Shown here: piece by piece, positions 24,067 through 25,110 of the stretch
How positions within the stretch are numbered: the stretch's first letter is position 1
How the letters are laid out: each line of letters opens with the position of its first letter
Source: a virus
Taxonomy: Duplodnaviria > Heunggongvirae > Uroviricota > Caudoviricetes
Reading direction: 5' to 3' (one strand)
IMG/VR virus record: IMGVR_UViG_2778261385_000001
Length of the DNA: 25,458 bases
The notes under the pieces: model-generated
The model's database searches: none
Seen by the model: the letters and a program-made list of their open reading frames with translations, nothing else
What the model was told of the DNA's origin: nothing
Translations under genes and position numbers: made by a program

Positions 24067-25110
24067 ATGAAAATTAACAAGATATTATCATCTGCAACAC
24101 TATTGTATGGTATGTCAATGGCCATGTCGGTCGGGAGTTGTGCAACACCTGTCCAGACTAATCTTCCTGGTTACACCCCGGGTGCAGATATCATTAGTGT
24201 TTCACCGACCAGAAACCAGGTCGATCTCATTGGTGATGTTGTTTATTCCCAGATAAAAGGAACTCGTTCTGTCAGACAGCTTCACATGTCAGTTCTTGTC
24301 CCGCGAACAAATGATTTAAAACCAGCCATTATTTATTATCCCGGCGGCGGATTCATGTCTTCTGAACATGACAAATTTATTGAAATGAGAATGGCTCTGG
24401 CAGAAGCTGGTTTTGTTGTGGCCGCTGTAGAATACAGAACAATTCCTGATACATTTCCAGCACCAGTTGAGGATGGAAAAGCTGCAATACGTTACCTGAG
24501 AGAGCATGCCAGCAATTATGGGATTGATCCTCAAAGAATCGGAGTTCTGGGTGACTCTGCCGGTGGATGGCTTGCCCAGATGATGGGAACTACAAATGGT
24601 GACAAAACCTTTGATAAAGGTGACTTTCTTCAGCAATCCTCAGATGTTCAGGCAGTTGCCACACTTTATGGGATTTCTGACTTGTTGAATATTGGCGAGG
24701 GGTTCCCTGAATCAGTGCAGGAGGTTCATCGCTCTCCTGCCGTAACCGAAGCCTTAATGATCAATGGCCCTGCATTCAGAAATTTTGCGGGAGCCCCCAT
24801 CACAGCGTCAAAAGAAAAAGCGCTAAACGCCAGTCCAATCGGACATATGAAAGGAGTAAAACCCCCATTTCTTATTATGCATGGTAGCAAAGACACTCTG
24901 GTTTCACCTGAGCAAAGCGCCAAACTATTCAGGATGTTGAAGAAGAACGGTGATAACGCTGAGTACGTGCTGGTAGAAGGGGCCGAGCATGGCGATAAGA
25001 CATGGTATCAGCCAATTATTATAAACAGAGTCGTTGAGTGGTTTACTAAAAACCTGGGAGCGCCTATAAAAACAGCTCCCCAACAACAAAACCCAAACGC
25101 TAACCTGTAA
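24067..25110 (+). CDS. Lipoprotein alpha/beta-hydrolase (esterase/lipase, HSL-type motifs)
   Basis: 347-aa ORF; N-terminus MKINKILSSATLLYGMSMAMSVGSCA with lipobox VGSC; oxyanion-hole-like YPGGGF; nucleophile elbow GDSAGG (G-x-S-x-G); candidate Asp/His in HGSKD and AEHGD; visibly AT-rich relative to the phage genes. Confidence 0.8.
   Translation: MKINKILSSATLLYGMSMAMSVGSCATPVQTNLPGYTPGADIISVSPTRNQVDLIGDVVYSQIKGTRSVRQLHMSVLVPRTNDLKPAIIYYPGGGFMSSEHDKFIEMRMALAEAGFVVAAVEYRTIPDTFPAPVEDGKAAIRYLREHASNYGIDPQRIGVLGDSAGGWLAQMMGTTNGDKTFDKGDFLQQSSDVQAVATLYGISDLLNIGEGFPESVQEVHRSPAVTEALMINGPAFRNFAGAPITASKEKALNASPIGHMKGVKPPFLIMHGSKDTLVSPEQSAKLFRMLKKNGDNAEYVLVEGAEHGDKTWYQPIIINRVVEWFTKNLGAPIKTAPQQQNPNANL

Follow-up and report, generated by a model that had tools for sequence, protein, structure and literature searches.

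A predicted lipoprotein esterase of the BD-FAE family as cargo of a lambda-like Escherichia coli prophage and its probable link to hydroxycinnamoyl esters

What is an esterase gene doing in reverse orientation beside the early genes of a lambda-like prophage, and what could it offer to a phage or its host? The 25,458-nucleotide stretch of viral DNA analysed here (hereafter the window) carries such a gene at 24067 to 25110 on the + strand, antisense to ylcH-ybcN-ninE-ybcO-rusA-ylcG-Q, and the orientation opposite to ybcN-ninE-ybcO-rusA that a first-pass annotation had pointed out is seen in both the ORF map and the annotation. We find that the gene is ordinary phage cargo in a lambda-like E. 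coli prophage. Taken as a whole, the reading that we regard as probable is that of a lysogenic-conversion gene, contained in a 1.3-kb cassette, for an outer-membrane lipoprotein that would act as a hydroxycinnamoyl (feruloyl) esterase.

The open reading frame is a real and intact α/β-hydrolase gene of the BD-FAE family. From its ATG start to the stop codon, which is included in the coordinates, it encodes 347 amino acids identical to RefSeq WP_000700202.1, and the α/β-hydrolase of this length with four motifs that had been described from the letters alone was found exactly: YPGGGF lies at residues 90-96, GDSAGG at 162-167, HGSKD at 272-276 and AEHGD at 306-310. The two profiles that had been suggested for a search both matched above their Pfam cut-offs, BD-FAE (PF20434) with 153.9 bits against a gathering cut-off of 26.8 bits (E 5.7e-45, profile positions 7-214 of 215) and Abhydrolase_3 with 81.3 bits, and the protein is also matched by PHROG 3341, "esterase" (E 1.9e-129). 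The AlphaFold2 model (pLDDT 85, pTM 0.84) agrees with this assignment, and the top PDB matches in Foldseek were 6nkf (E 1e-27), the BD-FAE structures 6xyc/6tkx (E about 1e-20, TM for the target 0.80-0.81) and then 6mly, a feruloyl-esterase domain. The catalytic nucleophile Ser164 in GDSAGG (codon 24556-24558), the acid Asp276 in HGSKD (24892-24894) and the base His308 in AEHGD (24988-24990), all on the + strand, match Ser128, Asp237 and His269 of 6tkx position by position and are invariant in an alignment of 74 homologous sequences. The description of the enzyme as HSL-type held in part, with GDSAG present and Abhydrolase_3 matched. However, the HGGG oxyanion motif of the HSL family is absent from the protein, which reads Y-P-G-G-G-F with Pro92 in the place of the His, the NCBIfam HSL subfamily models reach only 32-55 bits against cut-offs of 380-430 and the NCBIfam Aes model 57.5 bits against 389. 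Canonical HSL membership was rejected because of the PGGG in place of HGGG and the low NCBIfam scores, and the best family is BD-FAE.

The lipoprotein signal that had been read at the N terminus, with Ala at +2, is borne out by pattern search. The signal peptide (24067-24141, + strand) comprises residues 1-24 and ends at the lipobox V-G-S-C, with Cys25 (codon 24139-24141) as the predicted lipid-attachment site. PROSITE pattern PS51257 matches residues 15-25 (GMSMAMSVGSC), a Lys is found within the first seven residues, and Cys25 is the sole cysteine of the whole protein. The representative of the 90%-identity cluster (P0001) has Tyr at this position, as one of two cluster representatives that do, and an artefactual lipobox was therefore considered; it was rejected on an allele search of 5,426 complete E. 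coli genomes, in which the Tyr25 allele occurred in none and the exact 41-mer spanning the Cys25 codon (ggccatgtcggtcgggagttgtgcaacacctgtccagacta) in 680. The lipobox Cys is kept in all 43 readable viral contigs and also in the nearest non-phage relatives P0002 and P0004, while relatives at or below 72% identity carry signal peptides of the AxA type and no lipobox Cys, limiting the lipobox to the nearest clade. By the established rule, a residue other than Asp at +2, here Ala, predicts Lol-dependent sorting to the outer membrane, from which exposure on the surface does not follow. We infer acylation and location from this lipobox, which predicts a lipoprotein.

The leads on what the enzyme might cleave, namely a characterised homologue and the gene neighbourhoods of relatives, all appear to point to plant-derived hydroxycinnamoyl (feruloyl) esters. 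The homologue is KoFAE from K. oxytoca (340 amino acids), 64% identical to the window esterase over its full length (346 columns, E 5e-170), which as a crude lysate and against a vector control hydrolysed ethyl ferulate and freed ferulic acid from de-starched wheat bran (PMC10146132). The published KoFae primers have exact matches in K. oxytoca locus L085 (5995-6015 and 6996-7017), which identifies it as the KoFAE locus. An identity of 64% does not fix substrate specificity. A Dickeya aquatica homologue with 66% identity is named "Ferulate esterase." The genes of the nearest non-phage relatives, P0002 (79% identity) and P0004 (75%), follow a phenolic-acid decarboxylase gene (PF05870, E about 1e-84) at a distance of 17-33 nt, in the P0004 loci with a LysR regulator gene adjoining the pair, and on an E. 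coli IncF plasmid a P0004-like protein is encoded 12 nt behind such a decarboxylase gene. An unbiased survey of neighbourhoods in 80 representative genomes gave that LysR regulator (9 loci) and the decarboxylase (in 8 loci, on the same strand and immediately upstream) as the two commonest neighbour families, and the decarboxylase was also found in L007-9, L092 and L140. Six of the surveyed loci have a p-hydroxycinnamoyl-CoA hydratase/lyase gene (NF006588, 465 bits against a cut-off of 276), and in five an MFS gene resembling aromatic-acid/H+ transporters lies directly upstream (best NCBIfam model TIGR00895, 319 bits and under its cut-off of 418.55); the neighbourhoods of many surveyed relatives were uninformative. 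Flavocytochrome c or multihaem cytochrome genes adjoin the esterase gene in six Sutterella, Parasutterella and Desulfovibrio loci, an observation that fits hydroxycinnamate respiration and is too unspecific to serve as evidence. In a neighbour-joining tree, the phage esterase clade is sister to the decarboxylase-linked clade. No remnant of the decarboxylase or LysR gene was found upstream of the phage esterase when the L007 genes were compared with the window by tblastn and blastn, DNA similarity to L007 beginning inside the coding sequence at 24154, and no gene of hydroxycinnamate metabolism lies near the phage copy. Together, the homologue and the neighbourhoods make a function linked to dietary fibre probable.

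The foremost alternative, which we consider rather unlikely, is a broad-range or acetyl-specific carbohydrate esterase that takes O-acetyl groups off xylo-oligosaccharides, pectin fragments or the cell's own or host glycans (LPS, capsule, peptidoglycan, sialic acids), an activity that would also cover receptor modification and superinfection exclusion. The founding BD-FAE enzyme is indeed bifunctional, a feruloyl and acetyl-xylan esterase that also removes acetyl groups (PDB 6TKX/6XYC; PMC8165983), and envelope anchoring would put the window esterase close to envelope glycans. There is also weak NCBIfam similarity to acetyl esterase, PaeX and AxeA1, but these acetyl-esterase models all stay far under their cut-offs (PaeX, for example, with 47 bits against 550), and the characterised 64% homologue cleaves ferulate esters. 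In addition, no relative in the 80 surveyed genomes lies beside O-antigen, capsule, sialic-acid or peptidoglycan genes, no PADLOC defence family matches the protein at E ≤ 0.001, and the phage O-acetyl and sialate esterases known so far have other folds (SGNH). The deacylation of host glycans or sialic acids, receptor modification and superinfection exclusion proposed in the first-pass annotation thus found no lead in their favour, the leads being all hydroxycinnamoyl, and among its suggested roles only the vaguer "nutrient release" would agree with them.

A lipase, or an esterase of short-chain lipids or xenobiotics (tributyrin-type compounds, drug esters), in either case not specifically tied to plant phenolics, is in our view very unlikely. 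This possibility is raised by the goat rumen metagenome protein "lipase Lip_vut4", the best match among solved structures (sequence E 1.6e-37, 33% identity, TM 0.85), and by HSL-family esterases, LipQ and chloramphenicol hydrolase, which match less well. However, the name Lip_vut4 is the depositor's label, and our search for biochemistry on this protein found none; the HSL and LipQ models are far under their cut-offs, and both the neighbourhoods and the closest characterised homologue indicate hydroxycinnamates.

The esterase is carried by a cassette of about 1.3 kb (1312 bp, approximately 23803-25114). On its left, lambdoid phages that lack the esterase (phage 82, Turner, HK639 and others) match the backbone as far as 23802, giving a boundary at 23802/23803, and the boundary on the right, 25114, is found in 18 viral contigs and in 4A7-type phages and is where the homology to L010 ends; in Escherichia sp. 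MOD1-EC7003, the shared cassette begins at about 23825. The slot lies just upstream of ylcH-ybcN and in the K-12 prophage DLP12 holds ybcL-ybcM instead. With a GC content of 0.434, the cassette is below every non-overlapping window of the same size in the 25-kb sequence (minimum 0.444, mean 0.55; z = -2.7), and the coding sequence is AT-richer than the phage genes, as had been noticed (GC 0.449 and GC3 0.388, against 0.47-0.52 and 0.44-0.63 for ybcN to Q). The presence/absence polymorphism between phages, the fixed boundaries and the AT-richness support horizontal acquisition as prophage cargo, in line with the earlier description.

The left part of the cassette is a 5' noncoding leader (23803-24066, + strand) that travels with the esterase gene and presumably carries its promoter. 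It is 99-100% conserved in all eight esterase-bearing phages, and a low-stringency search of all phage records found the 264 bp nowhere else in the collection, that is, only with the esterase gene. The candidate promoter of its own that had been ascribed to the gene was not borne out, as a consensus scan upstream of the esterase gave no + strand site with at least 9 of 12 matches. By eye, weak candidates can be read at 23997-24025 (TTGTAC-17-TAAATT, 7/12) and, as an extended -10-like element, at 23934-23942 (TGaAATAAT), between which conservation in L010 does not discriminate, and AAGG at 24053-24056 is a possible Shine-Dalgarno sequence. An Rfam search of the region from 23.6 to 25.4 kb at E ≤ 0.1 revealed no structured RNA.

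On the other side of the left boundary, the phage backbone (23616-23802, - strand) contains a small ylcH/orf33-like ORF (23616-23717), an inverted repeat (23742-23768) and, on the - strand, a promoter-like site at 23801 to 23773 that heads the ylcH-ybcN-ninE-ybcO-rusA genes, as seen from the scan, the L001 annotation and the phage 82 record X92588. Beyond the right boundary lies the 3' end of an inverse-autotransporter adhesin gene (25147-25404, - strand), which encodes 1421 amino acids when intact, as in L001 (13448-17713, with IAT_beta and Big_1/Invasin_D3 repeats). Here it is truncated, the homology to L001 ending at 25404, by the end of an IS66-family insertion sequence (25405-25458) that interrupts the gene with a junction identical to that in strain 2015C-4136CT1. 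Functional coupling between esterase and inverse autotransporter was rejected as unsupported since the modules are separable: the esterase occurs without the inverse autotransporter in 18 of 45 viral contigs and in the 4A7-type phages, and some genomes have the adhesin gene and no esterase junction. The same prophage also carries an iss/bor lipoprotein gene.

Between the convergent esterase and inverse-autotransporter genes, just beyond the cassette end at 25114, there is a G+C-rich hairpin (25116-25134) that resembles a bidirectional intrinsic terminator. The perfect 8-bp stem that had been reported exists (GGGAGGGC-taa-GCCCTCCC, -16.7 kcal/mol on the + strand), while its assignment to the esterase gene needs qualifying. 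The + strand offers a poor T-run (CATTCAATTTT); the - strand, where the stem has 9 bp, is followed by CTTTTT and reaches -18.1 kcal/mol, offers a better one. A hairpin follows the esterase stop codon in both contexts, but the 4A7-type phages and L010, whose homology ends at 25114, have a different one at the same place, and for this reason we do not count the hairpin as part of the cassette: it lies outside and is either common to the esterase and the convergent inverse-autotransporter module or part of the latter.

Of 5,426 complete E. coli genomes, 680 carry the gene, among them that of EC958, an ST131 strain, and it is also found in eight sequenced lambdoid phages. The dN/dS values of 0.11 against L010 and 0.09 against L007, relatives with 94% and 75% DNA identity, show purifying selection (dN/dS of about 0.1), 41 of the 43 IMG/VR copies that can be read have an unbroken reading frame, and the cassette is kept in heavily decayed prophage remnants and in at least three different flanking contexts. 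A silent passenger, that is, an intact, unexpressed (e.g., H-NS-silenced) gene that hitch-hikes with successful prophages and is useless to phage and host, is the least probable of the three alternatives: it would agree with the AT-rich region, with the lack of a recognisable σ70 promoter in the leader and with prevalence, which alone is no proof of selection since most carriers may be clonal (EC958 and O25:H4 strains included), but the low dN/dS, the intact reading frames with their single Cys always kept and the retention of the cassette in decayed remnants and varied flanks all argue against it.

We therefore return to the hydroxycinnamoyl esterase as our preferred reading and propose the following mechanism. 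The esterase would be a "moron" gene in the variable cargo slot of DLP12/phage-82-like lambdoid prophages, and since its transcription opposes the early-right/nin operon, a lysogen could express it with no transcription running into Q. The product would be exported through Sec, then lipid modified at Cys25 and, because residue +2 is Ala, probably sorted to the outer membrane, where it would work as a Ser164-Asp276-His308 carboxyl-esterase of the BD-FAE/CE10-like branch of α/β-hydrolases. The likeliest substrates would be hydroxycinnamoyl esters (feruloyl-, p-coumaroyl- and caffeoyl-sugars, feruloylated arabinoxylan oligosaccharides and chlorogenate), hydrolysis of which would free the phenolic acid together with a sugar or quinate. 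Expression in lysogens, the substrate specificity of the phage copy and a fitness benefit to E. coli are the parts of this picture that we infer. Catabolism of ferulate or caffeate is not known from E. coli, so that a benefit is not obvious. A search of the literature on WP_000700202.1 and on phage-borne feruloyl esterases returned nothing specific and no expression data.

If the activity is as we suggest, about one in eight complete E. coli genomes encodes an enzyme, brought in by a phage, for the release of ferulic, caffeic or p-coumaric acid from plant esters in the diet. This would be a diet-linked metabolic addition to the lambdoid lysogenic-conversion genes, which are mostly toxins, serum-resistance proteins and adhesins, and the gene would be a tangible candidate for the chlorogenate/cinnamoyl-esterase activity that some gut E. 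coli isolates have long been known to show and for which no genetic basis has been given. Such activity varies between strains among human colonic E. coli isolates, as Couteau et al. (2001) are cited in later papers (PMC4335975, PMC10340781). A bolder extension, which we put forward as a speculation that is more likely to fail than to hold, is that phage spreads the lipid-anchored feruloyl/chlorogenate esterase in gut E. coli, including the pandemic lineage of EC958, and that the cassette is the basis of the strain-variable activity; with esters that pass porins, such as feruloyl-arabinose and chlorogenate, as its periplasmic substrates, the enzyme might supply lysogens with sugars from the diet, shape the release of phenolic acids in the colon and serve as a gut-colonisation factor. 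If the activity is wrong, an ordinary moron annotated as an "alpha/beta hydrolase" remains.

Among known systems, KoFAE (K. oxytoca Z28, WP_105889557) is of one family with the window esterase, and the two proteins, 340 and 347 amino acids long, share the GDSAGG/HGSxD/xEHGD triad context, an N-terminal export signal and a conserved C terminus ending in NANL. In contrast to the phage protein, KoFAE lacks a lipobox, its signal peptide being of the ordinary kind (…SSVNA/GE), and its gene is chromosomal rather than phage-borne, lies between housekeeping genes and is not low in GC. BD-FAE, the founding member of PF20434, agrees with the window esterase in fold and in a Ser-Asp-His triad that can be superimposed but is only 24-25% identical to it, and it is a Bacteroidota enzyme from a xylan polysaccharide-utilisation locus; the window esterase differs from it by an extra N-terminal β-strand region (50-80) and a longer insertion at about 215-260, modelled partly at low confidence. 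Members of HSL family IV (Abhydrolase_3; Aes of E. coli) resemble the esterase in the GDSAG-type nucleophile elbow, the glycine-rich oxyanion loop and the overall fold, but they have HGGG where the window esterase has PGGG, and Aes is cytoplasmic, whereas the window esterase carries an export signal.

FaeD and FaeT of Dickeya, both feruloyl esterases, were reportedly described by Hassan and Hugouvieux-Cotte-Pattat in 2011, and FaeD is said to be released by the Out type II secretion system. Both belong to CE10 and are listed in PMC10319131 and 10.1101/568105. In Dickeya, two paralogues of the esterase family lie 3 kb apart, one of them beside a LysR regulator gene, and their products have ordinary signal peptides, whereas the phage protein should stay lipid anchored. 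The nearest non-phage relatives (75-79%) are the pad-linked esterases of LysR/phenolic-acid decarboxylase/esterase modules, such as that on the E. coli plasmid pSCU-105-1, which likewise have the lipobox Cys and are sister to the phage clade in the tree; they appear to be cotranscribed with the decarboxylase under a LysR regulator, while the phage cassette has neither gene and an unrelated leader of 264 bp. Finally, although the cassette departs from the classical morons in that it encodes an enzyme and no serum-resistance protein, adhesin or porin and in that its promoter candidates are weak, it resembles the lambdoid morons (bor/iss, lom, nmpC and the ybcL-ybcM slot of DLP12) as a small, AT-rich and self-contained unit amid backbone genes, with presence/absence polymorphism and a product predicted to reside in the envelope.

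The esterase gene called in the first-pass annotation is present at 24067..25110 on the + strand, with an ATG start and a 347-aa product whose translation contains all four of the motifs YPGGGF, GDSAGG, HGSKD and AEHGD. The hydrolase profile search that it had proposed returned both BD-FAE (PF20434; 153.9 bits, cut-off 26.8, E 5.7e-45) and Abhydrolase_3 (81.3 bits), and the protein also matches PHROG 3341, "esterase" (E 1.9e-129). An AlphaFold2 model, for which 74 homologues served as input, has a mean pLDDT of 85 and a pTM of 0.84, and its best PDB matches are the alpha/beta-hydrolase esterases 6nkf, 6xyc/6tkx (BD-FAE) and the esterase domain of 6mly. 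Alignment to 6tkx pairs the predicted triad Ser164/Asp276/His308 with Ser128/Asp237/His269 of BD-FAE, and these three residues are unchanged in 74/74 homologues. On profile, PHROG, model and triad evidence, this is a real gene and not a chance ORF, and the earlier observation and most of its structural interpretation were right. The label "HSL-type" fits only loosely: the HSL hallmark HGGG is replaced by PGGG, and the protein is better classed with the BD-FAE/CE10-like esterases than with family IV. The family C-terminus, A-N/S-L (residues 345-347, window 25099-25107), is conserved behind 15 variable residues; neither Ala345 nor Leu347 varies across 13 diverse family members, Leu347 is kept in at least 90% of the 74 homologues, and one possible role is that of a signal for sorting or secretion.

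Three independent lines, namely a characterised homologue, the gene neighbourhoods and the BD-FAE family, point to hydroxycinnamoyl (feruloyl) esters as the substrate, an assignment that we regard as fairly likely. The characterised homologue is KoFAE of Klebsiella oxytoca Z28, a 340-aa enzyme that, when expressed in E. coli, hydrolysed ethyl ferulate, and that freed ferulic acid from de-starched wheat bran (PMC10146132). The published KoFAE primers match both ORF ends of a K. oxytoca family member (L085) exactly; full-length identity between this protein and the window protein is 64%. A Dickeya aquatica homologue at 66% identity carries the name "Ferulate esterase," and FaeD and FaeT of Dickeya are CE10 feruloyl esterases (PMC10319131; 10.1101/568105). 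The D. aquatica locus (L005) holds two exported paralogues 3 kb apart, at 5001-6032 and 9089-10075, which share 66% and 47% identity with the window protein; a divergent LysR gene adjoins the second. These are presumably FaeD and FaeT, in one order or the other. BD-FAE itself is a feruloyl/acetyl-xylan esterase (PMC8165983).

The genes of the closest non-phage relatives, P0002 (79% identity) and P0004 (75%), follow immediately downstream of one for a phenolic-acid decarboxylase (PF05870, E about 1e-84), accompanied in the P0004 loci by a divergent LysR gene, and transposase genes flank both modules. This decarboxylase-linked clade is the sister of the phage clade in an NJ tree. In an unbiased survey of 80 representative genomes, every ORF lying up to 4 kb from the esterase gene was clustered. 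The two most widespread neighbour families were this LysR, at 9 loci, and the decarboxylase, at 8, where it lies directly upstream in the same orientation; they range over Enterobacterales, Acinetobacter, Aeromonas and Azospirillum. A p-hydroxycinnamoyl-CoA hydratase/lyase (NF006588, 465 bits, cut-off 276) occurs in six Rhizobiales or Sphingomonas loci, and an MFS transporter gene lies immediately upstream in five, its best NCBIfam match being the aromatic-acid/H+ symporter subfamily TIGR00895 at 319 bits, below the cut-off of 418.55. The phage copy is without any hydroxycinnamate partner gene, and the window holds no decarboxylase remnant upstream of it. A P0004-type module is also found on pSCU-105-1, a conjugative IncF plasmid of an E. 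coli isolate from a healthy person, where a LysR gene cut by IS3, the decarboxylase and a 75%-identical esterase occupy 4899-7047 of locus L140, a second route for E. coli to gain the complete module. Gut Sutterellaceae and Desulfovibrionaceae (Desulfovibrio, Maridesulfovibrio, Parasutterella and Sutterella; L068, L075, L077, L079, L080 and L083) have a homologue whose gene adjoins those of a flavocytochrome c with a Tat signal (TIGR01813, 428 bits) and of a small multihaem cytochrome c, which may form a periplasmic reductase for released hydroxycinnamate.

The bifunctionality of BD-FAE makes an acetyl or broad carbohydrate esterase possible in principle, including the earlier idea of an action on host glycans or sialic acid with a role in exclusion, but gene context lends this no support and no defence-system match was found; we consider it unlikely and have replaced it by the hydroxycinnamoyl-esterase hypothesis. 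A lipase or xenobiotic esterase is improbable, the sole argument for it being how the depositor labelled the top PDB match.

The lipoprotein signal was correctly recognised: the N-terminus, MKINKILSSATLLYGMSMAMSVGS-C-ATP, follows the PROSITE lipoprotein rule, with the lipobox Cys at position 25, the sole cysteine of the protein, and Ala at +2. The lipobox is limited to the phage clade and its nearest relatives, and relatives at 72% identity or less have ordinary AxA signal peptides, a distribution suggesting that the window protein derives from a feruloyl esterase of the periplasmic or secreted type and has gained a lipid anchor. By the established Lol rule, Ala at +2 predicts residence in the outer membrane, and this is the predicted location here; surface exposure is not implied. 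Substrates that pass through porins, chlorogenate and feruloyl-arabinose among them, could still be within reach of a periplasm-facing esterase. In P0001 and P0005, cluster representatives of the closest clades (P0001 from clustering at 90% identity), a single G-to-A change puts Tyr in place of the lipobox Cys. Exact 41-mer searches of 5,426 complete E. coli genomes found the Cys25 form in 680 and the Tyr25 allele in none. The Tyr variants may reflect sequencing errors or a rare loss of the anchor. A subgroup of homologues of 317-318 aa, presumably cytoplasmic since it has no signal peptide, is encoded in genomes of Raoultella, Enterobacter, Pantoea and Serratia (L014-L017) and on Klebsiella variicola and Kosakonia plasmids (H113-H116); in L014-L017 it adjoins a small regulator-like ORF, and L014 also has an SDR-like ORF.

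The gene is very probably phage cargo, and its product an exported esterase. The window represents the right arm of a lambda-like prophage: it has genes for terminase, head, tail and lysis together with iss/bor, Q and the nin region. E. coli strain 4/1-1 carries an identical stretch (L001 1-13705 = window 11700-25404), and the gene order at that locus is O, P, inverse-autotransporter gene (-), esterase (+), ylcH-like ORF and ybcN-ninE-ybcO-rusA-ylcG-Q. The antisense placement opposite ylcH-ybcN-ninE-ybcO-rusA-ylcG-Q and the AT-richness both held: the esterase CDS has a GC of 0.449 and a GC3 of 0.388 compared to 0.47-0.52 and 0.44-0.63 in the antisense neighbours ybcN..Q, and the 1312-bp cassette (GC 0.434) lies below every non-overlapping window of the same size in the 25 kb. 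The only other deep GC trough (0.40-0.44) is at the iss/bor serum-survival lipoprotein gene (19656-19949, +), likewise antisense to the surrounding phage genes, which brings the AT-rich lipoprotein morons of this prophage to at least two. Directly downstream of Q, Rfam gives a sub-threshold match to the isrJ Hfq-binding sRNA (21434-21513, -; 30.4 bits, gathering score 37, E 0.009).

Eight sequenced lambdoid phages, among them 4A7, Lambda_4C10, Perceval, D2, 1W, 3W and PhiR47_2, carry the esterase between a ybcK-like recombinase gene and ybcN, and lack the inverse autotransporter. The slot between ybcK and ylcH-ybcN is occupied by ybcL-ybcM in DLP12 of K-12 and by small unrelated ORFs in phage Turner. 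On the left, backbone homology to esterase-less phages stops at 23802, just past a promoter-like site (TTGATT-17-CATAAT, 23801..23773, -) that heads the ylcH/orf33-ybcN genes and a 9-bp inverted repeat (TCACCGGAG...CTCCGGTGA, 23742-23768, -) between that site and these genes; the cassette starts directly beyond the -35 element. The phage 82 record (X92588) annotates the same elements upstream of orf33 as a "possible regulator-binding site" and putative promoter. On the right, homology ends at 25114, 4 bases past the stop, for 4A7-type phages, 18 IMG/VR contigs and the Escherichia sp. remnant. Boundaries so consistent across contexts define a unit of about 23803-25114, made up of a 264-bp leader and the CDS, and the leader matches nothing in the phage collection except other copies of the cassette. 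The hairpin proposed as its terminator exists (8 bp, 25116-25134, -16.7 kcal/mol) but lies outside the cassette and looks more like a terminator when read on the - strand (9 bp, CTTTTT), and in 4A7 another hairpin follows the esterase. The proposed promoter of its own was not recovered, with no + strand site at the scan threshold and only weak matches by eye. The inverse-autotransporter gene, for an adhesin, is a second, separable cargo; it is convergent with the esterase and lies inside the early-right operon, after P and before the nin genes. It encodes 1421 aa with IAT_beta and Big_1/Invasin_D3 repeats and is intact in L001 (13448-17713); in the window, its cut 3' part and an IS66-family end occupy 25147-25458 (-), the element interrupting the gene at 25404/25405, 257 nt before its stop.

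The 45 esterase copies in IMG/VR are all 97-100% identical, and the phage-borne esterase is hence one recent clade; of the 43 readable copies, all 43 keep Cys25 and 41 have an intact ORF. The esterase/inverse-autotransporter junction occurs in about 500 complete E. coli genomes, including EC958 and O25:H4 strains. That the gene is a silent passenger is very improbable, as it is under purifying selection (dN/dS 0.11 in comparison with the Escherichia sp. allele, 0.09 with the 75% relative) and is retained, with an intact ORF, in two strongly decayed prophages. In Escherichia sp. MOD1-EC7003 (L010 5759-7048), the prophage is reduced to the cassette and an emrE-like gene between bioA and ybhC, an interval that we take to be the lambda attachment region, and in E. 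coli 2015C-4136CT1 (L142) to ybcO-ninE-ybcN, the esterase and an IS-cut adhesin gene.

E. coli is not known to utilise ferulate or caffeate; a feruloyl esterase could benefit this host through the release of an esterified sugar or through detoxification, or not at all. A 2001 report, as cited in PMC4335975 and PMC10340781, described human colonic E. coli isolates with chlorogenate/cinnamoyl-esterase activity, and the cassette is a testable candidate for this trait. Hundreds of genomes and several phage records already label the gene "alpha/beta hydrolase" or "esterase," it is a member of PHROG 3341, and a literature search found no mention of its RefSeq protein (WP_000700202.1). The enzyme family, the moron architecture and prophage-borne carbohydrate-active enzymes are all of known kinds. 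The specific assignment proposed here, to a lipoprotein derivative of the KoFAE/decarboxylase-linked feruloyl-esterase family that lambdoid coliphages carry in a defined slot for cargo, is one that we have not seen made anywhere.
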